Positions 1 through 56,565 of a stretch of 64,000 nucleotides of DNA are shown piece after piece (within the stretch, counting starts at the first letter, position 1; each line of letters begins with the position of its first letter). The position numbers were made by a program, and so were the translations under genes. The notes below the pieces were generated by a model. That model was given only the letters and a program-made list of their open reading frames with translations, was not told the DNA's origin and did not search any database. This DNA is from Candidatus Nanohaloarchaea archaeon (GTDB lineage Archaea; Nanohalarchaeota; Nanosalinia; Nanosalinales; Nanosalinaceae), in the NCBI GenBank assembly GCA_047617985.1, contig JBLGBS010000003.1, positions 1-64,000 on the forward strand. Reading direction: 5' to 3'.

Positions 1-555
1 TTACCTGCATTACTTCCTCAGTATTTTCCACTCCAAGAGCTTCAAGCATTGATTCAAGCAGGTTTCTATCATTTAACTGGAACCGGACACGATCCATTAG
101 ATCAAGTTTCTCGTAGATTCTTGCAGCTGATGCGATTACTTCTGCATCCGCCTCAACTGATTCAATTCCAAATATATCGAAATCTCCCTGGAAGAATTCT
201 CTGTCCCGACCTTTCTGGACGTTTTCGTACCTCCATCTTTTCGAGGTGTCGTACCATTTGATCGGTGTCTTCAAATCCTTTCTCTGCTGTACAAGTCTAG
301 CCCGAGTAGGAGTCTGCTCCGGTATAAGTGAGATCTCTCGACCTCCTTTATCCTCGAAATTGTACATCTGATCCATTAACTCGTCCCCGGATTTTACCCT
401 GTAAAGATCTGCTTTCTCTAAATTTGGGGTATTGATCTGCCGGAAACCGAACTCTTCAGCAGTCTCATCCACCACTTCAATCAGTTTTTTCCAGCTACTC
501 CATTCATCCGGGTAACGATCATAGAATCCTTTCAGGCTCTGAATATCTGTCATTT
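1..555 (-). CDS. hisS: Histidyl-tRNA synthetase, N-terminal part. The gene runs off the window start; its start codon is at 553-555 on the minus strand.
   Basis: Reverse translation from 555 gives MTDIQSLKGFYDRYPDEW...RWRYENVQKGRDREFFQGDFDIFG. This matches class II HisRS motifs 1 and 2 (RYERPQKGRYREF-type). It is absent from the ORF track because it is open at the window edge. Confidence 0.8.
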
Positions 556-652
556 TTAATTTCCTCTGGAAACGGTTTGATCTCGGAATTTTTTAAGCGG
601 TTTCCTCTCTAACAAAAATGTAAAAACCCGGCCAACGAATCCAGATTTAGTT

Positions 653-1120
653 ATGGGAGATTTCTCTGAACATGTCTTGTTTGGTCTTTTGACAGCGGTG
701 TTAATCGCTTTTCTGACGAAGGATATGTTTAGTTTTAATCCTTTTGAGTCGATTGCTTCGGTTACAGCGGTTTTTGTCGGTTCTGTTCTGCCTGATGTCG
801 ATCATAAGAATTCTTATGTTCATAGAGCTGTTAAGTCGATGGTTTCGCTGGTTGCGGGTTCGGCTACTTTTTTCCTTCCTCTGCCGGTTGTGCAGAAGTA
901 TCTGCTTTACATCACTATCCTGGTCACGGTTTACTGGGGGATTGGGAGGATGAAGATCAGGCACAGAGGTTTTACTCATTCGCTGTCTTTCTGCGCTATA
1001 GCTGTGTCTATGGCTGTTGTAGCTTCAGTTATATCTCTTGGTAGTCCTGTTCCAGGTGTGGCGTTGGGTGTAGGACTTTTCTCCCATCTTCTTTTGGATG
1101 GGGAGATCAAGATAGAATAG
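653..1120 (+). CDS. Membrane-bound metal-dependent hydrolase (DUF457/YdjM-like)
   Basis: Several TM segments. His/Asp motifs PDVDH, HRGFTHS and HLLLD are typical of the LexA-regulated inner-membrane hydrolase family. Confidence 0.5.
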   Translation: MGDFSEHVLFGLLTAVLIAFLTKDMFSFNPFESIASVTAVFVGSVLPDVDHKNSYVHRAVKSMVSLVAGSATFFLPLPVVQKYLLYITILVTVYWGIGRMKIRHRGFTHSLSFCAIAVSMAVVASVISLGSPVPGVALGVGLFSHLLLDGEIKIE

Positions 1121-1567
1121 TTAATTTATATCTGCTACATCTTCCATTGTCGCTTTTCTGTTGTCGACTTTGTTGTCGGTGTCGTAGTCCGCGACCTCTG
1201 GATTGGTGTAGAGCGTTACTCCGAACTTTTTCGAGAGTTTGTCGGCGAGCGGTTTGTCAGGTTTGAGATCCTGTTTCTCGATCTTTGCGAGCAGTGATTC
1301 TTTTTCGTTTAGATCGTCCGCGACTTCTGCTATAGAAAGCTGTTCTGATTCCCTTGCGCTCTTGATCCGGTCTCCGTAATCGTTTACCAGAACGTCTTTA
1401 CTGCTTCTTTTCTTTCGCTTCTTCTTTTTCTTCCTGCTCTTCTTGGAGCCGGTCTTTACTTCTTCTCCCATTTCGGCGCAGGAGTCACATGCCTTGAGTG
1501 TTGCTCCCTCGATTTTGACTTTTTTTAGAGAATCTACGTCTCTTCCACAGAGTTCACAAGATGTCAT
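1121..1567 (-). CDS. Archaeal MBF1-like protein: N-terminal Zn ribbon plus HTH
   Basis: The CxxC...CxxC pair (CELCGRD...CDSCAEMG) is followed by a K-rich linker and an HTH resembling the XRE/MBF1 helix (LSIAEVADDLNEKESLLAKIE). Confidence 0.6.
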   Translation of the reverse strand: MTSCELCGRDVDSLKKVKIEGATLKACDSCAEMGEEVKTGSKKSRKKKKKRKKRSSKDVLVNDYGDRIKSARESEQLSIAEVADDLNEKESLLAKIEKQDLKPDKPLADKLSKKFGVTLYTNPEVADYDTDNKVDNRKATMEDVADIN

Positions 1568-1665
1568 TTCGGTGGTTCACATCAAAGTTGGTACAAAGGT
1601 TCTGAAAGTTTCAGTTGAAATTTCGGGCTGAAAGTTTAATAAACTAACAGCAGTCCCTGCTGTTT

Positions 1666-2205
1666 TTAACCGGAGAGCCTGTTTATTGTGAAGGCGTACA
1701 GCACTCCCAGGGCTGAAAACGTGAGGAAACCTGCTCCCACGAAAAGAAGAATTTCAGGTGAGAGATTCATCAGGGTTGATGGTGCTTCCTGAGCTGCTGT
1801 ACCGGCTGATTCCTGCCCCATAGTCATCGCATCCATCGTTCTCTGCTCTGACTGGTAGCTGTCCCGGAAAAGTTCCTGGGCTCCGGATCCCATTGCTACT
1901 AGAGCTACCATCATTGAAAGCGCTGAGGAAGCGATTGTGAAACGTACTTTTCTCTCCCGGCCTTCAACTATAGCTCTGGCCTTTCTTGTCGGGGAGTATG
2001 AAACTCTTTTCCGTCCTTCTTCCTGGTCTTTCTCTACAAGCCCGGCTTTGTGAAGTGTGGTTAGGTGGGATGAGATCGTTGACTTGCTCTTGTCTAGGTT
2101 ATCGCTTAACTGTGTTGGTGTTGATTCTTTCTCAAGAACTTGGTGAAGTATTTTTACTCTTGTCGGCGATGAAAGCGCCTTAACAGCTTTGAAATCCAGT
2201 TCCAT
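1666..2205 (-). CDS. ArsR-family winged-HTH regulator with a C-terminal transmembrane segment
   Basis: The N-terminus LSSPTRVKILHQVL...PTQLSDNLDKSKSTISSHLTTLHKAGLV is a classic ArsR HTH. A C-terminal hydrophobic helix is present. Confidence 0.6.
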   Translation of the reverse strand: MELDFKAVKALSSPTRVKILHQVLEKESTPTQLSDNLDKSKSTISSHLTTLHKAGLVEKDQEEGRKRVSYSPTRKARAIVEGRERKVRFTIASSALSMMVALVAMGSGAQELFRDSYQSEQRTMDAMTMGQESAGTAAQEAPSTLMNLSPEILLFVGAGFLTFSALGVLYAFTINRLSG

Positions 2206-2299
2206 ATGAATGAGTTACAGCTGAAGTATTTTTTAATTAACCCTGGTATGTTCGATCTAGAGCGAACGATTGAAGCTGGTTTATATTTGAACAGACGAA

Positions 2300-3172
2300 A
2301 TGTATTATTTAATGGAGTTAAAACAGCGTATACCCGAAGCCAGCCAAAACGTGAAAATCGTGTCGATTCTATCTTTTGTCCTGGTCGCGGGCTTTCTGGC
2401 TACTAATCCGCCAGCTCTTCAGGACAGCTCACAGGTTCAAACTTTTGATAGACCAGCAGGTTCATCAGGAGGTGTTTCCTATGATGCACCGGCCCGGACA
2501 GAATCAGAGGGCGGAGGACAGCCGAACGCCGGTTCGGATAGAAAAGTTATAACTACTGTTAGAACCACTTTGAAAGTTTCAGACGTTGGATCAGCCATGA
2601 AGTTAATTGAATCAGATGTCAGATCCTACAACGGTTTCATCGAGTCCAGCTCCATAGATACCGGTTCGGAGAACACAGGCAGCATGACCGTTGCAGTCCC
2701 GGCAGATGATCTGGAAGAGTTTGAGGCAGGCCTTGAGGACAGCTGGGATGTTGAATCCAGAAACGTCGATCGGGAAGATGTAACTGATTCCTACAACCAG
2801 CTGGAGACTGAGATAGAAAGCCTTAAAACTGAGCACCAGAGGCTCAGAGAGCTGATCAATCAGACAGATGATGTTGAGAATCTTATCAAGCTTCAGGAGC
2901 GGATGTCGCAGGTCAGAAGCCAGATAAATTACAAGCAGGACAGGCTTGACAGATTAAGTGAAGACATCGAATATTCAAAAGTTCATATAACACTGGAAGG
3001 CCCGAAAAGCTTTGAATCAAGATTTGAGCTGAGAGAAACCCTTTCAGATGCTTACAGCGCATTGTTTGACTCTGTAAAGCTGATCATAGTTGGTACAGCA
3101 TATCTTGTCCCGGTTGCACTCCTGTACGGAGCTTATAGAATTGGGATCAGGGTTAAGAGGGAGAGGCTTTAA
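2300..3172 (+). CDS. DUF4349-like membrane-anchored coiled-coil protein. The start is uncertain; an alternative ATG lies at 2312.
   Basis: N-terminal TM, central coiled coil (LETEIESLKTEHQRLRELI...), C-terminal TM. This matches the DUF4349 architecture. Confidence 0.45.
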   Translation: MYYLMELKQRIPEASQNVKIVSILSFVLVAGFLATNPPALQDSSQVQTFDRPAGSSGGVSYDAPARTESEGGGQPNAGSDRKVITTVRTTLKVSDVGSAMKLIESDVRSYNGFIESSSIDTGSENTGSMTVAVPADDLEEFEAGLEDSWDVESRNVDREDVTDSYNQLETEIESLKTEHQRLRELINQTDDVENLIKLQERMSQVRSQINYKQDRLDRLSEDIEYSKVHITLEGPKSFESRFELRETLSDAYSALFDSVKLIIVGTAYLVPVALLYGAYRIGIRVKRERL

Positions 3173-3305
3173 AACCCTCTCTACCCTTAGTTTTTTACAC
3201 TTCTGTAGTAAAACCTTCTAGACTAGGTCTGTTAACCCCTTTTTCAGGTAGAAAAAGCCATACCTATAAAAAAGAGGCCGGACAATACTTTCTTGGTTGA
3301 TTACC

Positions 3306-3473
3306 ATGGTAGATGTACTTAAGAAATCTGGCGTTCGTGACGCTGCAGACGGAGTCAACGTAGGTTCTGACTTCTATGACGCACTAGACGATGAGGTAAA
3401 AGACCTTATCGACAGAGCAGTCGAAAGAGCAGAAGAAAACGGACGCAGAACAGTCAAAGCAAGAGACGTTTAA
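3306..3473 (+). CDS. Small histone-fold-like protein (DUF1931-like), 55 aa
   Basis: MVDVLKKSGVRDAADGVNVGSDFYDALDDEVKDLIDRAVERAEENGRRTVKARDV. The C-terminus resembles the archaeal histone/DUF1931 motif (A..NGRKTVKxxD). It is below the 60-aa ORF-track cutoff. Confidence 0.5.
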   Translation: MVDVLKKSGVRDAADGVNVGSDFYDALDDEVKDLIDRAVERAEENGRRTVKARDV

Positions 3474-3532
3474 AGTCTCGCGCTTTAACCTTCAATTTTT
3501 CCTTCTTTTTATTTTAAAACTGATTTGTTCCA

Positions 3533-4012
3533 ATGAAAATTAGAAAAGCGGAGCCGGAAGACGCGGAGTATATAAAGGAAGCTGCGGAGAGGACGTGGAA
3601 GGAGACCTACATCGAGATTCTTGACACTGAGACTATTGAGAGGATTATCAATGACTGGTACAAGGAGGAAAGTCTTAAGAGACAGATCAGAGAACATGAA
3701 CATTTCTATGTTATTGAAGAGGAAGGCGGGCTGGCAGGTTTCATCAACGCGACTGTGGAAGACGGTTTAGCCGAGCTTCACAGGCTTTACATCTATCCTG
3801 AATACTGGAGACAGGGATTTGGAACAGAGCTCTACACCAGGCTGGAGCAGAAGATCGGTTCAGAAGTGGAGAAAATCCGGCTGAACGTGATCCCGGAGAA
3901 CGATCCTGCGGTAGATTTTTACCGCAAACACGGCTTTGAAACTGTTGAGAAAAAGACTACAGAGCTGAAAGGAGAGGAAGTTGAGCAGGAAGTTATGGAG
4001 AAGAAGATCTGA
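3533..4012 (+). CDS. GNAT family N-acetyltransferase
   Basis: GNAT acetyl-CoA-binding motifs are present (RLYIYPEYWRQGFGTELY; ...FYRKHGF). Confidence 0.75.
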   Translation: MKIRKAEPEDAEYIKEAAERTWKETYIEILDTETIERIINDWYKEESLKRQIREHEHFYVIEEEGGLAGFINATVEDGLAELHRLYIYPEYWRQGFGTELYTRLEQKIGSEVEKIRLNVIPENDPAVDFYRKHGFETVEKKTTELKGEEVEQEVMEKKI

Positions 4013-4018
4013 GCATTT

Positions 4019-4234
4019 CTAGAGCTCTTCCTTTCTCCTCTCCATCTCCTGAAGATGCATTTCGACCTTATCCAGAGCCTCTCTTAACTCTTCAACGGTT
4101 TCCACGTTCTCGATCGGAAGTCTTCCCAGATCTCCGTCGTTGATCTCGATTAATGCTTTCCCGTCATCGGTTTTTACCGTGAACTCCAGGACGTCGTAAG
4201 GCCCCTGTTTGAATTCGTGAAGTATCTCTGTCAT
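4019..4234 (-). CDS. Hypothetical small acidic protein
   Basis: 71-aa ORF with acidic composition like its neighbours. No recognisable motif. Confidence 0.35.
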   Translation of the reverse strand: MTEILHEFKQGPYDVLEFTVKTDDGKALIEINDGDLGRLPIENVETVEELREALDKVEMHLQEMERRKEEL

Positions 4235-4259
4235 AGTATATTTTTGGTCTGAGAGGGTT

Positions 4260-6041
4260 TTATGTATTCCGGATAAGATTCTCTGCTTCCTGGACAGCTT
4301 TCTCCGCTTCCTCGCTGTTTTCTGCTTCCGCTGTTATTCTCAGTTTATGAGAGGAACCTGATGACCGGATCAGCACTCTTGAACTCTCTGACTCGTACTT
4401 GATGCCGTCGATTTTCGACAATACGCGGAAGTTTTCTTCCACTTTCTTCTTCAGTTTCTCCATCACCAGGTTCTTATCTTCCACCTTGACCGATTTCTTC
4501 TTGACCTCTATCTCAGGTAGTTCATCTATTATCTTCTCCAGATCGGCTCCAGCTAACATAAGACCGGAGAGGGTTCCAGAGTTATATGGAACGAATTTCG
4601 TGAAACAGTAATGACCGTTCGGCTCCCCTGAAAACTCTGCGTCTGTCTCCAGTGTTCTGTCGATCACAAACGGGTCTCCTACCCTGGTGTACTCTATTTT
4701 CCCGTATTTTTCGGCAGTTCTCCGAACTATCTCGGTGGAATCTATCGACGCCACGACTTTCTCAGGCTTAACCACCTCAATCAGGACAGCGAATACCTCA
4801 TCCCCGGTAAGCCACTCTCCATCGAAGTAGACCGCAACCCTGTCAGCATCCATATCGGTCGCTATACCAAGATCTGCATCCGATTTTTCCACTTTTTCTT
4901 CAACATGGCTTAAGTTCTCCGGCTTCGGGTCAGGGGGGTTGATATCCGGCTTTTCGGATGATAAGTTTTCGACTTCCGCCCCGAGTTCCTCCAGTATTTC
5001 GGCCAGTCTGCTCGACTGTCTTCCCCCCATGTTCTCCACCACGACTTTTCGGTCTACTTCATCGAAATACTCTCCAAAAAAGCTCTCCATCCTACTGAGG
5101 TACTCCTTGCCGTAGCTTTTCCGGGTCAAGGATCCTGTTTCTTGTTCTTCAAACCGGTTCTTCCGGAATATCTGCTTTAGCCTGTCAAGATCCTCGTTCA
5201 TGAAACCGTTGCCTTCCGGGTAGACAAGTTTGAAGCCGTTGAAGTTGAGAGGCATGTGAGATGAGCTTACCTGCACTCCTGTAGATTCTTCCTCTACTGC
5301 AGAAAATGCTGTGTAGTCTGTGGGGCCTGTCCCGCAGTCAATCACATGTATTCCCTGGGAGGTTAACCCTTTTTTCAGGCATTCCTTGAGATTTCCGGAT
5401 GTTTCTTTCGGGTCTTTCGTTAAAACTGCTTTTTCTTCCCCTCTTTCTGTTATAAGCCGTCCCAGTGATTCTCCAAGCCGGTAGGCGAAACTTTCGTTCA
5501 GCTCTTCCGGGTAACTTCCTCTTATATCGTATCTTTTGAATACTTTCTCGAAATCCGGAGGTGTCAAGTGTTCGAGTATCTTTTCGATGTTTTTGTCATC
5601 AGGATCAACCTGGATACCAGGGATGTTAACTCTTTCAAGCTCTTCCTTCCAGTCATCTACCAGGAAGTCAATGTCCGCAACTTCTTTGGTTCCCTCCGTT
5701 ATTATCTCGTATCCGTCCACATACTCTAGAACACCTGAGTACTGCAGTTTTTCCTTCTGAATTACAGGATCTCCACGTGTAACAACGATTACTTCATGCT
5801 CCTTCCTCAGTTCTTCCAGCTTTCCGACATCGCTGTACAGGTATTCACTGCAGTTTCTCATCTCGTCTAGGAGCTCTTTTTGATCGACTTCCATTATCTC
5901 TGCGTGTTTTTCCAGGTTGTAGAAACCGTCTTGTTTGGCCTGGTCGTATGTGTCGCCAAAACGAGGGAATTCTGTGTTTAGATCTTCCTTGAAGCGGTCG
6001 GTGTCGAACAGAACGCGGTCGAAGTCTATTCCTATCTTCAT
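4260..6041 (-). CDS. Phosphomannomutase/phosphoglucomutase (alpha-D-phosphohexomutase) with an N-terminal HAD-like extension of about 165 aa
   Basis: The PGM/PMM core starts at KRYDIRG. It carries the active-site Ser loop GVQVSSSHMP (a TASHNP variant), the metal loop ATDMDADR and the sugar-binding loop SGEPNGH. The N-terminus has a HAD motif I-like IGIDFDRVLFDT. It overlaps the next gene by 4 bp (ATGA). Confidence 0.8.
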   Translation of the reverse strand: MKIGIDFDRVLFDTDRFKEDLNTEFPRFGDTYDQAKQDGFYNLEKHAEIMEVDQKELLDEMRNCSEYLYSDVGKLEELRKEHEVIVVTRGDPVIQKEKLQYSGVLEYVDGYEIITEGTKEVADIDFLVDDWKEELERVNIPGIQVDPDDKNIEKILEHLTPPDFEKVFKRYDIRGSYPEELNESFAYRLGESLGRLITERGEEKAVLTKDPKETSGNLKECLKKGLTSQGIHVIDCGTGPTDYTAFSAVEEESTGVQVSSSHMPLNFNGFKLVYPEGNGFMNEDLDRLKQIFRKNRFEEQETGSLTRKSYGKEYLSRMESFFGEYFDEVDRKVVVENMGGRQSSRLAEILEELGAEVENLSSEKPDINPPDPKPENLSHVEEKVEKSDADLGIATDMDADRVAVYFDGEWLTGDEVFAVLIEVVKPEKVVASIDSTEIVRRTAEKYGKIEYTRVGDPFVIDRTLETDAEFSGEPNGHYCFTKFVPYNSGTLSGLMLAGADLEKIIDELPEIEVKKKSVKVEDKNLVMEKLKKKVEENFRVLSKIDGIKYESESSRVLIRSSGSSHKLRITAEAENSEEAEKAVQEAENLIRNT

Positions 6042-40264: not shown

Positions 40265-40397
40265 GGGGTCGTAGCTCAACTTGGGAGAGCGTCCGCCTCC
40301 AGAAATTTATGGAGGAATGAAGGTCTTGATTGACCTGATGATTAAGTCCTAGTTCGGAGCTAGCGGAAGGTTGCGGGTTCAAATCCCTCCGGCCCCA
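40265..40397 (+). tRNA. tRNA-Trp (anticodon CCA) with a 59-nt intron at canonical position 37/38 (intron 40303-40361)
   Basis: Exon 1 (40265-40302) is GGGGTCG-TA-GCTC-AACTTGGGA-GAGC-G-TCCGC-CTCCAG. Exon 2 (40362-40397) is A-GCGGA-AGGTT-GCGGG-TTCAAAT-CCCTC-CGGCCCC-A. The intron carries GGAGG segments complementary to the anticodon-loop CCUCC, as needed for a BHB helix. Confidence 0.8.
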
Positions 40398-49957: not shown

Positions 49958-51745
49958 ATGAAAATCGTCCCCGACACCTCGATCATAATTGATGGAAAAC
50001 TTTCCGAACTTGCAGAAAAAGGAGAGATAGAAGGAGAAATAGTTATACCGGAGTTTGTGGTGGACGAGATTGAGAACCAGGCCAACAAAGGACTGGAAAT
50101 CGGCTTCGCAGGAATAGAAGAGATCAAACAGATCAGAGAACTTGGGGAAGAAAAAGGATTCCAGGTTTCTTTCACAGGAAGGAAGCCGACAGATGAAGAG
50201 ATCAAGATGGCTTCAAGCGGGAGGATAGATGCTTTAATCAGAGATGTAGCTGAAGAGATGGAAGCCACCCTTTACACCGGAGATATTGTTCAGGCAAAGA
50301 TCGCTGATGCAAAAGGAATCGACCACAGACTGTTTGAAAAAGAAAGAGTTGAGACATTCTCACTTAAAGAATACTTTGATGATAAAACTATGAGCATCCA
50401 CCTGAAGCAGGGTTCAAAGCCTAAAGCCAAAAGAGGGATGCCCGGCGAGTTCAAACTTGAAGATATCAGCGAAGAGATTCTGGAGAAAGATGAGATCAAC
50501 GAGCTGATTCAGGAGACAATTGAGAAAGCCGAGATGAGCGATGATGGTTTAATCGAGATGCAGAAAGAAGGGGCCACAGTTCTACAGATCGGAAGGTACA
50601 GAATAGCAATTTCAAGACCGCCTTTCTCCGAGGCACCGGAGATCACAGCTGTTAGACCTGTCTCAAAGGTCTCCCTTGAGGACTACGAATTAACTGAGAA
50701 ATTGATGGAAAGACTGGATGAAACCGCTGAAGGAATACTGATCGCAGGAGCCCCTGGACACGGTAAATCGACTTTTGCACAGGCACTAGCGGAGCACTAC
50801 GAGCAGGAAGACCGAATACTGAAGACGATGGAGAAACCAAGAGACCTGGATGTAGGCCCGGATATTACACAGTACGCGGAGCTTGAAGGCGATATGGAGA
50901 ACACCGGCGACTTTCTACTGCTTGTCAGACCGGACTACACGATCTATGACGAGGTTCGGAAAACCAAGGATTTCGAGGTTTACTCAGACATGAGGATGGC
51001 TGGAGTAGGGATGGTCGGGGTAGTCCACGCATCCGAAGCAGTCGACGCTGTGCAGAGGCTGATCGGGCGAGTAGAGCTGGGAATGATCCCTCAGGTAGTT
51101 GACACGGTCGTCCATATCGAGAATGCGGAGGTCGCAGAAGTATACAAGTTAGAGCTAACCGTCAAAGTACCGGAAGGAATGACAGAAGAAGACCTTGCGA
51201 GACCGGTCGTCCAGATACAGGAACTGGAGAACAGCAAACCGGTATACGAAATCTACACATACGGAGAAGAAACAGTTGTCATACCTGTTGATGAGGAGAA
51301 AAGAGAGTCCAGTACCCGGAAACTGGCGAAAAAACAGTTGCTCCACGAACTATCCGGAAGAGTTGACAACCCTGAGATCGAGTTTATTTCAGACGAGCAT
51401 ATCCGGTTAATGGTTGATGAGGACGAGATCTCACATGTGATCGGATCCGGAGGAGAGAACATTGACAGACTTGAGGACGAACTTGGTCTAAACATTACAG
51501 TTGAACCTAAAAGCAAGACTTTGAAGAACGGCATCGACTTCCAGGTGGAGGAGCGAGGTAACTCCCTGATAATAGATGTCGGAACTGGTATGTCCGGAGA
51601 AGACATAGACGTTTACGACGGCGACGAGTTTCTTTTCACTGCTACAGTCGGGAAAAACGGAGAAATCTCCCTGACCAAAAACTCGGATCTGGCCGGTCGA
51701 GTACTGGGAAGCTACGAAGCCGGAAAGCTTGATGTGAAGGTATAA
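49958..51745 (+). CDS. PIN domain / PhoH-like P-loop ATPase / KH domain protein (COG1855-type)
   Basis: N-terminal PIN (MKIVPDTSIIIDG), Walker A GAPGHGKST, and C-terminal KH (VIGSGGENIDRLEDELG). Confidence 0.75.
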   Translation: MKIVPDTSIIIDGKLSELAEKGEIEGEIVIPEFVVDEIENQANKGLEIGFAGIEEIKQIRELGEEKGFQVSFTGRKPTDEEIKMASSGRIDALIRDVAEEMEATLYTGDIVQAKIADAKGIDHRLFEKERVETFSLKEYFDDKTMSIHLKQGSKPKAKRGMPGEFKLEDISEEILEKDEINELIQETIEKAEMSDDGLIEMQKEGATVLQIGRYRIAISRPPFSEAPEITAVRPVSKVSLEDYELTEKLMERLDETAEGILIAGAPGHGKSTFAQALAEHYEQEDRILKTMEKPRDLDVGPDITQYAELEGDMENTGDFLLLVRPDYTIYDEVRKTKDFEVYSDMRMAGVGMVGVVHASEAVDAVQRLIGRVELGMIPQVVDTVVHIENAEVAEVYKLELTVKVPEGMTEEDLARPVVQIQELENSKPVYEIYTYGEETVVIPVDEEKRESSTRKLAKKQLLHELSGRVDNPEIEFISDEHIRLMVDEDEISHVIGSGGENIDRLEDELGLNITVEPKSKTLKNGIDFQVEERGNSLIIDVGTGMSGEDIDVYDGDEFLFTATVGKNGEISLTKNSDLAGRVLGSYEAGKLDVKV

Positions 51746-53532: not shown

Positions 53533-53889
53533 ATGGCTTTGGATCAAATTATTCTGGCTTTGAACACCGCCGGAACGCTAGCCATCGGAAGCATCTGTTT
53601 CTTCATAGTTTACACCACGTTTCGAGGAATTGAAGACGATATGATACAGGAATTCTCGAAGAGATTCCTCATGGCTATAGCAGTTCTTCTGCTGTATGTT
53701 TCATACCTGATGGTGTACAACACCTTCTTCCAGGGATCAACTATGGCTAGATACCCACTCTACCTTGTACTTGTCGCAGTATTCCTATACATGATTTACG
53801 CAGCAATGGCGTTCGAGAAAATTGCAAAGGAATACGGAATTTCACAGGACAAGAAACTGGAAAAAATGGAAAAGGAAGAACTGGGTTAA
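53533..53889 (+). CDS. Small membrane protein
   Basis: 118 aa with three TM helices. Confidence 0.4.
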   Translation: MALDQIILALNTAGTLAIGSICFFIVYTTFRGIEDDMIQEFSKRFLMAIAVLLLYVSYLMVYNTFFQGSTMARYPLYLVLVAVFLYMIYAAMAFEKIAKEYGISQDKKLEKMEKEELG

Positions 53890-55049
53890 GGCTTTCTCTT
53901 ATCTTTTTTCTTTCTAACTACAGTGTTAAGCTCGTTAAGAGCTTCGTCAACTACTTCGAGCATATCCCAGCCTTCTTCCTCGATGTTGATGTTTCCTAGT
54001 TCGGAGTAAAGCTTCAGCTCGATCTCCCATCTGTGCTTCTTCCCATCTTTCTCAGCTTTCCTGAACCTCATAGTTAGCTCTTCAGGTCTCTCAAGTTTTC
54101 TTCCAAGTGAACCTCTGAGCTGTGTCTTGATCTTGTTGTGGACAGCAGCCTTTTCCTCCGGAACTTCCAGCCCTGTAAGGGACACAAGAACCGTTTCTCC
54201 CGGAGCAAACTTCGCCATATAATCTATGAAATCCTTCACTGTTACAATCGACTCAGGGTATCCTGCGTCAGTGAAAACTATCTCTGTCGCATTTTTCCCT
54301 TTCATCTTCTCCGCAGCTTCATCTGCTTTAAGATGATCGCTCATACTGAAAGGATCACGCGACATAAGCTCTTTAACAGGTATATCCGACATCTCATCCT
54401 TCTCAATACCTCCAGCTATATTGACTTCACGACTGCCTGATCTATCACCTTTGGTTCCTCCAGAATCAATAGAGTCTCGTGGAACCATAGCTCTCAGAAG
54501 ATCTGTACTTCTCAAAATCCCTGTCAGATTTCCGTCTTCATCGATAATAGGCAGTCTTGATAGATTCTTATCAAGCATCAAGTGTCGGGCCTTATCCAGG
54601 CTGTCCTCCTCGAACACTTTCTCCAGCTCGTAGGAATGAATATCTCGGGTTGAAATGTTGTCAAGTTCATCCACCTCTGTCAGGATGTCTCTGAACTCTG
54701 TATCCCCTACAACTCCTTTCAGCTTTCCGTCTTCTGTTTCCACCAGCATCTTCCGACCGGAGTTAACCCTCAGAGAGGCCAGGTCAACTAGACTGGAGCC
54801 GTCTTTGATTTCTGGGGGCTGATGCATCGCTTTCTCAATCTTGGTTCTCTCAGGATTGAACTGGATAAATCTGATGAGCTCTCTGTAGCTGATCGCTCCC
54901 TCAAGTCGGTTCTTTGAATCAACTACAGGGATGGTTCTTAAATCCTCTTCTTCCATCCTGTTCTTGATTTGTGCAAGGTTTTCATCAGTTTCAGCTGTAA
55001 CAGGATCCTCATTGATAACCTTGTTTGCCGGAATGTTCTGTACTGACAT
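53886..55049 (-). CDS. Four CBS domains fused to a C-terminal HPF/RaiA-like (ribosomal S30AE) domain
   Basis: Two CBS pairs. The last 95 aa or so (SLTGLEVPEEKAAVHNKIKTQLRGSLGRKLERPEELTMRFRKAEKDGKKHRWEIELKLYSELGNINIEEEGWDMLEVVDEALNELNTVVRKKKDKRKP) align by pattern with E. coli HPF (LNITGNNVEIT...[37 protein letters not shown]). Confidence 0.55.
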   Translation of the reverse strand: MSVQNIPANKVINEDPVTAETDENLAQIKNRMEEEDLRTIPVVDSKNRLEGAISYRELIRFIQFNPERTKIEKAMHQPPEIKDGSSLVDLASLRVNSGRKMLVETEDGKLKGVVGDTEFRDILTEVDELDNISTRDIHSYELEKVFEEDSLDKARHLMLDKNLSRLPIIDEDGNLTGILRSTDLLRAMVPRDSIDSGGTKGDRSGSREVNIAGGIEKDEMSDIPVKELMSRDPFSMSDHLKADEAAEKMKGKNATEIVFTDAGYPESIVTVKDFIDYMAKFAPGETVLVSLTGLEVPEEKAAVHNKIKTQLRGSLGRKLERPEELTMRFRKAEKDGKKHRWEIELKLYSELGNINIEEEGWDMLEVVDEALNELNTVVRKKKDKRKP

Positions 55050-55055
55050 TTTGTA

Positions 55056-55559
55056 TCACCTGTCAACCAGGAACTTCTCTGGCTTTTCATCCATGTCAAT
55101 AAAGTTATCAGCTGCCTCCCTAATCTCTTTTGCGGAGGATTTACCGAAGCTCATAACTTCTACTCTGCATCCAAGAGACTTCAGGTGATCCACGAGGACT
55201 GCGAAATCACCGTCTCCTGTGACCAGGACAACAGTGTCCAACTTCTTGGCCTGCTGTACCATGTCAACTGTCATTCCTAGATCCCAGTCTCCTTTCTTCT
55301 GACCGCCGTAGAACTCCTTGAGCTCTTTGGCTTTAACTTCATATCCGATTCTTCTAAGTGCCTCGAAGAAATCCTCTTCATCCGGTGTATCAGCTCTGAT
55401 AACGTACGCTGCTGCACGGATAAGATCACGGTTCATCACCGCGGCATCAAGAAGTTTTTCGAAGTCAACTTTTCCGTCGTATAGGTTTTTTGCGCTGTAG
55501 TACATATTTTGAACGTCTACGTAGACGCCTACTCTTTGATCGTTGTGTATATTTGTCAT
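55056..55559 (-). CDS. NYN-domain (LabA-like) predicted ribonuclease
   Basis: VGVYVDVQN...DWDLGMTVD...VVLVTGDGDF match the conserved acidic motifs of the NYN/LabA family. Confidence 0.7.
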   Translation of the reverse strand: MTNIHNDQRVGVYVDVQNMYYSAKNLYDGKVDFEKLLDAAVMNRDLIRAAAYVIRADTPDEEDFFEALRRIGYEVKAKELKEFYGGQKKGDWDLGMTVDMVQQAKKLDTVVLVTGDGDFAVLVDHLKSLGCRVEVMSFGKSSAKEIREAADNFIDMDEKPEKFLVDR

Positions 55560-55635
55560 TTTACTAACTTACCTCTAGTTCAAGAAAATCGATTGAAATA
55601 TCGATCCTTTTCAGTAAAAAAGACTTAGACGATAT

Positions 55636-56565
55636 TTAAAAGCCTATTCTCTCCAGGATTTTTGGCTCGCCGTGAAGATACATGTCAACGAAAACAACAC
55701 CCATTAGCTGACGGACAAAGTAGTAGACACCTACCAGGAGAACCGCTTCTGCTGAAACATGGACAGCTATGAAGAACGCTATCGCCACATTTCTTGAGGA
55801 AGACACAAAACCAATCGTTCTGGACTCCTTCTCATACAGCCCGGAGATAACCCCAAGTACATGGGAGTAACCGAACGTCAGGACGCTGAAAGCCACGAAA
55901 AACAGGATAGCGACAAGCAGCTGTGAAATATAGATAACTCCGTCCGCCTGAAGGATTAGCTTGGCCTGAACCAGAGTGATAAGCGTTATCAGCCAGAAAG
56001 CCAGTTTGGAGAAATGAATTCTTAGATCATCAATTATCTTGTTCTCGTAGCTCTGGGTCACCAAACCGATCAGGAACGGTGCAACCGCGAAAACCGCGTT
56101 CTCCATCATCAGGGAGTAATTGACATCCAGCGGGAAAAGCAGAAGCAGAATTGGGGCAAATACAAGAGCTCCAAAAACACTGAAAGTACCTGTGTAAGAA
56201 GCCAGATCCCCATCCGCCTTCGACATATTAGACCATATTTTCGGCGAACTTAAAGCTGCTCCAGACGCTCCAAGCACCAGAAACACTTCTCCTATATGGT
56301 TCGGGAGGAACGAGAAAATATACGCTATCCCTGGTACGAGAGCATAAATCGCTACCAGCGCTAATGACAACTGCTTACCTTTTGACCGGACAGCTTTGAA
56401 GAAGCTGAGATCCAGGTGAAGACCTACCAGGAAAAACAGTGAGGCCAGCAAAAATGTGAACAAAACATTAGATAAAACCTGCCCTGAGACAAAATAAGAG
56501 ACCGCGCCGGCAGAAATCACCAGCATGGCCAGCTCCAGGTCAGTCTTCAAACCATGAAATGGCAT
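55636..56565 (-). CDS. BASS-family (bile acid:Na+ symporter-like) membrane transporter
   Basis: About 9-10 TM helices with the characteristic two-repeat topology. Assigned from overall pattern only. Confidence 0.5.
   Translation of the reverse strand: MPFHGLKTDLELAMLVISAGAVSYFVSGQVLSNVLFTFLLASLFFLVGLHLDLSFFKAVRSKGKQLSLALVAIYALVPGIAYIFSFLPNHIGEVFLVLGASGAALSSPKIWSNMSKADGDLASYTGTFSVFGALVFAPILLLLFPLDVNYSLMMENAVFAVAPFLIGLVTQSYENKIIDDLRIHFSKLAFWLITLITLVQAKLILQADGVIYISQLLVAILFFVAFSVLTFGYSHVLGVISGLYEKESRTIGFVSSSRNVAIAFFIAVHVSAEAVLLVGVYYFVRQLMGVVFVDMYLHGEPKILERIGF

Follow-up and report, generated by a model that had tools for sequence, protein, structure and literature searches.

The locus considered here raises the question whether an archaeal protein that public records label merely "CBS domain-containing protein" serves to silence ribosomes, and what connects its gene with the nuclease-like gene that directly precedes it. 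The gene (hibA/aha) encodes 387 amino acids and is located on the minus strand at positions 53886-55049 of a stretch of 64,000 nucleotides (nt) from a Candidatus Nanohaloarchaea archaeon (contig JBLGBS010000003.1), which is called the window in the following; all position numbers refer to the whole window, and the strands of features are counted against its forward strand. A first-pass annotation, made from the sequence alone, had described the product as four CBS domains fused to a bacterial-type HPF/RaiA domain and had regarded such a domain as unusual for archaeal translation control. The open reading frame (ORF), its Pfam matches to CBS and PF02482 and its end-to-end homology with HibA of Pyrococcus abyssi indicate that the protein is very probably the nanohaloarchaeal ortholog of the HibA/AHA ribosome hibernation factor. 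The CBS-HPF fusion is real, but it belongs to a family already known from publications of 2025-2026.

HibA was discovered on ribosomes of P. abyssi by electron cryo-microscopy (cryo-EM) and comprises four CBS domains (residues 1-269) and an HPF/RaiA-like domain (residues 270-392). Among archaeal genomes, ~47% possess it (Madru et al., Nat Commun 2026, PMC13324472). AHA of Haloferax volcanii (HVO_2384), in which an AMPK-gamma-like CBS tetrad is joined to an HPF domain, represents the same family under a second name. The survey describing it covered 3,160 homologs from 17 phyla, and the HPF domain of the Ca. Nanohalobium protein A0A5Q0UFT2 was one of its PSI-BLAST seeds (Souza et al., bioRxiv 2026, PMC12934967). 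Due to this wide distribution, HPF-type domains have to be counted among the regular elements of translation control in archaea, which contradicts the earlier assumption that they are not, and the supposed novelty of the architecture could not be upheld.

Membership in this family emerged from searches with single sequences and with profiles. A phmmer search of 1.84 billion representative sequences yielded many proteins of 360 to 420 amino acids, 20-31% identical to the window protein and alignable with it from end to end. When 68 of these representatives were aligned with the window protein, CBS domains were recognized in all 69 sequences and PF02482 in 39 of them. The profile of the 69 sequences matched the P. 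abyssi HibA chain 9sr9_H end to end (7-375 versus 4-379, E = 5.1e-83) and, also end to end, chain 9l96_a (E = 9.1e-65), a chain of 406 amino acids with CBS domains, whose sequence is acidic and haloarchaeon-like. The P. abyssi HibA query sequence was rebuilt from the alignment to chain H of the cryo-EM entry 9sr9. Comparison of the nanohaloarchaeal alignment with HibA by hhalign gave a probability of 99.3% (E = 8e-21) over 359 columns, and BLASTP of the window protein against P. abyssi HibA was collinear across both modules (22% identity, E = 4e-11). The two proteins are also similar in length, 387 amino acids in the window and 392 in HibA (P. abyssi PAB0961, Thermococcus kodakarensis TK1186; PDB 9sr9-9srf). 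The 120 closest homologs among the matches listed were 53-100% identical to the window protein, and all those bearing an organism name are nanohaloarchaeal; homologs from Ca. Nanohalobium were 54-56% identical.

The N-terminal module (residues 1 to ~280, positions 54210-55049, minus strand) contains four CBS domains arranged as two Bateman pairs, as delimited by the secondary structure of an AlphaFold2 model and by Foldseek. Pfam recognized CBS in the 387-residue protein with E = 1.2e-33. The full-length model, built with 68 homologs, reached a predicted local distance difference test score (pLDDT) of 84.4 and displays four CBS units, each with the succession beta-alpha-beta-beta-alpha. Over ~300 columns it superposes on the four-CBS proteins SSO3205, MJ1225, AMPK-gamma, SriA/D and Dri, and CBS tetrads were the sole matches listed when it was compared with PDB folds.

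The HPF/RaiA-like domain (positions 53889-54197, minus strand) was delimited by the AlphaFold2 model, PF02482 and PDB fold matches. It comprises strands at residues 288-292, 324-335, 338-349 and 352-360 and helices at residues 297-318 and 363-385. Residues 278-387 alone matched PF02482 (Ribosomal_S30AE) with 24.9 bits (E = 3.4e-5), above the gathering cut-off of 23.7 bits, and 27 of 30 homologous C-terminal domains matched the same profile, the best with E = 9.6e-9. A profile of the C-terminal domain, compared with PDB sequences, retrieved HPF and protein Y chains for the most part, these accounting for all top six matches (best E = 3.9e-4). Modelled on its own, the domain attained a pLDDT of 88.4, and its best 37 Foldseek matches in the PDB were all HPF, pY or RaiA proteins or N-domains of long HPF, with E values down to 9e-7 and template modelling (TM) scores of 0.50-0.75. 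The last helix (DMLEVVDEALNELN...) was aligned by HMMER with Escherichia coli HPF, so that the alignment of this helix in the first-pass annotation was reproduced, together with its assignment of four CBS domains and a C-terminal domain of HPF/RaiA type. Two outcomes had been named there in advance as speaking against the proposal, a lack of any PF02482 signal and a C-terminal fold other than that of HPF; a PF02482 signal was obtained and the fold is that of HPF.

Several points weigh against the assignment to HibA/AHA. The identity of 22% to the characterized HibA is low. The full-length protein scored only 21.4 bits with PF02482 (E = 4.3e-4, residues 303-386 versus positions 10-88 of the 88 in the profile), which is below the gathering cut-off. 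Furthermore, the nanohaloarchaeal profile of the C-terminal domain missed the HPF domains of 9sr9_H and 9l96_a at E <= 1; therefore, the link of this domain to archaeal HibA is carried by the full-length alignments. The solved HibA and AHA chains were also not among the listed Foldseek matches, the PDB library comprising releases up to 8 April 2026. While domain architecture, fold and family membership, as well as the synteny pattern treated below, are observed, an association of the nanohaloarchaeal members with ribosomes would follow from homology, and their co-transcription with the upstream gene is read from sequence. Binding to the 30S mRNA channel and to the 50S tRNA sites, and the preservation of ribosomes in stationary phase, have been shown only for P. 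abyssi, T. barophilus and Hfx. volcanii. Nevertheless, the window gene is that of a nanohaloarchaeal member of the HibA/AHA family with a lineage-specific operon partner, and since it encodes a HibA/AHA hibernation factor, it can be annotated with confidence. The role of a ribosome-silencing factor, which had been proposed for it, is supported by this homology and agrees with what was later shown for the family.

The cryo-EM structures solved for its homologs, HibA of P. abyssi and AHA of Hfx. volcanii, suggest a mode of action for the window protein. On the small subunit, the HPF/RaiA-like domain at the C-terminus would, together with its basic tail, bind at the mRNA channel and the region of the decoding site (A/P), whereas the disc formed by the four N-terminal CBS domains would be accommodated in the tRNA sites of the large subunit. 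A long loop of this disc, connecting CBS3 with CBS4, would protrude into the peptidyl-transferase centre (PTC). Idle 70S ribosomes would be silenced and shielded against degradation in starvation or stress. In HibA and AHA, the CBS module attaches to the tRNA sites of the large subunit and takes up AMP at the CBS3/CBS4 interface (PMC13324472, PMC12934967). The binding site of archaeal HPF domains on the small subunit is that of bacterial HPF, and in phylogenies the archaeal domains form a clade apart from the bacterial ones (PMC12934967).

The loop in question was identified in the model and in the alignments at residues ~190-220 (positions 54390-54482, minus strand), which is the place of the PTC loop in HibA and of loop 3 in AHA. 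Both hhalign and BLASTP align it with the PTC-loop region of P. abyssi HibA (residues ~190-207). Residues 192-218 have a pLDDT below 50, and G197, G198, G201, G213, G214, E216 and K217 are conserved in the homologs. HibA and the window protein thus have a long CBS3-CBS4 loop at the same position, and they also share the basic C-terminal tail and an identical TVKD motif in CBS4 (T270-D273), whose residues K272 and D273 are invariant among the 68 homologs. On the other hand, the loop of the window protein is glycine-rich and ~10-14 residues longer than that of HibA.

Two motifs of the ribose-binding type, S181-T182-D183 and T270-V-K-D273, are conserved in the window protein, and it probably binds AMP at the CBS3/CBS4 interface as its relatives do. 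The CBS module of P. abyssi HibA binds AMP with a dissociation constant of 12 uM, which is tighter than its binding of ADP or ATP (PMC13324472), and AHA was observed with two bound AMP molecules (PMC12934967). Sensing of the cellular energy state is a plausible candidate role of the module. A gating of ribosome silencing by the energy charge, as the first-pass annotation had it, is however not established even in the characterized members; neither AMP nor ATP altered the binding of P. abyssi HibA to ribosomes in vitro (PMC13324472).

The two proteins come from different kinds of organism, HibA from a hyperthermophile and the window protein from a DPANN symbiont that is a halophile. A full two-module hibernation factor is thus retained by obligate DPANN symbionts whose genomes measure ~1 Mb, which fits a lifestyle of long host-dependent starvation. 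The C-terminal domain shares its fold with the bacterial and plastid HPF/RaiA proteins (YfiA, pY; PF02482), and kinship with them is also recognizable in the sequence. The bacterial proteins, by contrast, either stand alone (~95-115 amino acids) or possess a C-terminal dimerization domain (long HPF), and to our knowledge none of them carries an N-terminal CBS tetrad. As the HPF-like domain of the window protein is placed C-terminally to a CBS tetrad of 280 residues, the protein is not a canonical bacterial-type HPF, even though the domain is homologous.

The gene upstream of hibA (positions 55056-55559, minus strand) encodes a NYN-domain protein of 167 amino acids of the LabA type (COG1432, PF01936), which is a predicted metal-dependent nuclease. 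PF01936 was matched with E = 2.2e-38 and 132.5 bits, compared to a cut-off of 24.2 bits, and over its whole length the protein is related to PDB 2qip (Vibrio parahaemolyticus VPA0982, E = 1.6e-29). It has the same acidic motifs as this LabA-like COG1432 protein, namely D14 (DVQN), D91/D93 (GDWD) and D116/D118 (GDGDF). The coordinates confirm that the two genes are on the same strand and separated by a spacer of 6 base pairs (bp; 55050-55055). A Shine-Dalgarno-like GGTGA (55056-55060, minus strand) was read off the sequence; it overlaps with the NYN stop codon, 6 nt ahead of the hibA ATG, and is a putative ribosome-binding signal for hibA. GGTG is also present in the NYN-hibA gap of several other loci.

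To assess how far the gene pair is conserved, five local genes were compared by tblastn with 38 species-level nanohaloarchaeal genome loci. The contig scan used very specific peptide patterns and returned nanohaloarchaeal loci alone; the distant loci compared are few. In crown Nanohaloarchaea, NYN is located directly upstream of hibA at all 38 loci, the gaps measuring -1 to 16 bp except at one locus, where 43 bp separate the genes. Every crown genome sampled has the pair as a single-copy core element, while the genes that flank it vary: SBF was found at ~22, TM118 at ~30 and DUF389 at ~27 of the 38 loci. TM118 is a convergent ORF of 118 amino acids (53533-53889, plus strand) whose 3' end overlaps that of hibA by 4 bp; it gave no significant Pfam match, the weak ones (E >= 0.014) being membrane-protein families. 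Across the crown loci, identities amounted to 79-98% for NYN, 46-88% for HibA, 37-86% for DUF389 and 32-84% for SBF. By this measure, the constraint on NYN is unusually strong for a protein without an assigned function.

The adjacency at all 38 loci, the short gaps and a TATA-like motif that is found upstream of NYN but not of hibA make it likely that in crown Nanohaloarchaea both genes are co-transcribed on a bicistronic mRNA starting upstream of NYN. In the window, the candidate TATA-like element TTTTAAATA (55633-55641, minus strand) precedes the NYN ATG by ~80 nt. The corresponding pattern TT[TA]TAA[AGC] occurs 67-107 nt upstream of NYN at 28 of 37 loci and is absent from all equivalent windows in front of hibA. 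A palindromic element, TCGATATTTCAATCGATTT (55586-55604, minus strand), was detected downstream of the candidate promoter and ahead of the NYN start. The arrangement TCGAT-N6-11-ATCGATTT recurs 35-45 nt upstream of NYN at 10 distinct nanohaloarchaeal loci (L003-L006, L009, L013, L014, L016, L018 and L036), and the element may serve the NYN-HibA unit as an operator or as a hairpin in the 5' leader. No terminator-like site was found on the coding strand between NYN and hibA in a scan for bacterial promoters and terminators, which is uninformative for an archaeon.

Outside the crown group the arrangement is different. A deep nanohaloarchaeotal lineage, including a metagenome-assembled genome (MAG) labelled QJJ-7, possesses a HibA that is 37-41% identical and a NYN ortholog that is 63-66% identical. 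At the three loci of this lineage that offered enough sequence (L043, L044 and L048), NYN is encoded on the strand of HibA, 2-2.6 kilobases (kb) further downstream, with genes of the opposite strand in between, one of them at L043 and L048 being a DUF389 gene according to Pfam. There, NYN and HibA are not part of one operon, and it seems that a local rearrangement either created or destroyed the NYN-HibA operon. Moreover, no NYN gene is present within 5 kb of HibA at a Thermoplasmata locus, at an unassigned archaeal locus and on two metagenomic contigs. The latter were retrieved with the 9l96_a sequence, to which their proteins are 58-71% identical, and unlike the crown loci both lack a NYN neighbour, a difference noted when the window gene was compared with AHA. 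One further contig, L041 (JBLGBK010000010.1, bases 1-4391), carries HibA (61% identity), TM118 and DUF389 genes; it is labelled "MAG: Colwellia polaris" and is probably a nanohaloarchaeal contig mis-binned into a bacterial MAG.

It is conceivable that NYN and HibA of crown Nanohaloarchaea constitute a two-component dormancy module whose co-expression has been selected for. NYN might cut or trim ribosome-associated RNA (mRNA, tRNA or rRNA ends) at the entry into or the exit from hibernation, or the binding of HibA might shield ribosomes from NYN. The invariable adjacency with its narrow range of gaps amid variable flanking genes would agree with such a module, and so would the distance of no more than 2-2.6 kb between the two genes at three of three deep-lineage loci, the strong constraint on NYN and the acidic motifs that it has in common with VPA0982. 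Small DPANN genomes, however, have a conserved gene order and group unrelated genes in operons, and the support consists of synteny in one clade of such small, syntenic genomes. The pair is split by opposite-strand genes in the deep lineage, and NYN is missing near HibA at the four other archaeal and metagenomic loci. In favour of a module, bacterial NYN genes are tied by their gene neighbourhood to tRNA and rRNA processing; as of the 2017 classification, however, a nuclease activity had not been demonstrated for any LabA-type NYN protein of COG1432 (PMC5499597). Neither the HibA paper (PMC13324472) nor the AHA paper (PMC12934967) mentions NYN, and the literature searched yielded no link between NYN domains and archaeal ribosome hibernation. 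On balance, a joint function in dormancy is rather improbable. If it were true, a COG1432 NYN protein would for the first time be given a role in the cell, and archaeal ribosome hibernation would gain a nuclease arm, by which RNA cleavage is tied to hibernation. The position of the crown nanohaloarchaeal gene directly downstream of NYN, which distinguishes it from HibA as described, is specific to crown Nanohaloarchaea and appears, from the literature searched, to be the sole unreported element of the locus; until the contrary is demonstrated, the NYN-HibA pair is treated here as an operon of convenience. Of the original interpretation, the CBS-HPF fusion and the hibernation factor have stood, whereas its novelty, the energy gating and a general dormancy module with the NYN ribonuclease have not.

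With HibA/AHA as the preferred identity of the window protein, a function away from the ribosome has to be weighed as well. The protein could be a CBS-tetrad regulator, either a transcription factor similar to HhpR (CM-3) or a generic adenylate sensor, whose C-terminus merely mimics HPF. Such a reading could draw on a weak match to NCBIfam HhpR (NF053603; E = 1.6e-10) along with other matches driven by the CBS domains, and on the PDB sequence match 2yzq (PH1780), which is a stand-alone CBS tetrad. The HhpR score of 40.6 bits is, however, far below the cut-off of 520 bits. HhpR is a single CBS tetrad and therefore devoid of an HPF-like domain (PMC12934967), while the C-terminal domain of the window protein matches HPF in sequence and in fold, and collinearity with ribosome-bound HibA extends over the entire protein. 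A regulator acting off the ribosome is accordingly highly unlikely, and an HhpR-type regulator was excluded on account of the score and the presence of the HPF domain.

The CBS-only ribosome factors of archaea deserve a separate comparison. SriA-D and ARC-P with ARC-A (Methanosarcina, Methanolobus) and Dri (Thermoproteota) are ribosome-binding proteins with a related CBS tetrad that also bears a loop insertion, and the full-length model of the window protein matches chains of 9znf, 9zng and 9e7f by fold. They consist, however, of stand-alone or doubled CBS tetrads and lack the HPF domain that is present in the window protein, which was the ground for ruling out a factor of this kind. According to both the HibA and the AHA papers, Sri/ARC/Dri factors rarely co-occur with HibA.

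A joint role of the NYN and CBS genes in defence against phages is scarcely credible: a weak match to the NCBIfam CBS-domain anti-phage protein DS11 (52.5 bits, far below the cut-off of 260 bits) and a match of NYN to the generic LabA-like NYN model of PADLOC (3.2e-15) are opposed by the lack of any PADLOC match for HibA, by the uniform composition over the region and by the occurrence of the pair as a single-copy core feature, whereas defence islands are normally patchy in distribution, and the idea was rejected after the PADLOC check.

Some further features of the window were recorded. No second CBS or HPF gene was found in it. About 2 kb from the hibA locus, at positions 49958-51745 (plus strand), a protein of 595 amino acids is encoded that comprises a PIN domain, a T2SSE-type ATPase and a KH domain and is predicted to be another RNA-directed nuclease. 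The ARC dual-factor complex was considered as a precedent for a NYN or PIN partner of the hibernation factor and rejected, as ARC is made up of two CBS proteins. Farther away, at 40265-40397 (plus strand), Rfam called a tRNA spanning 133 nt (47.7 bits) that is absent from the ARAGORN output; it is probably an intron-containing archaeal tRNA.

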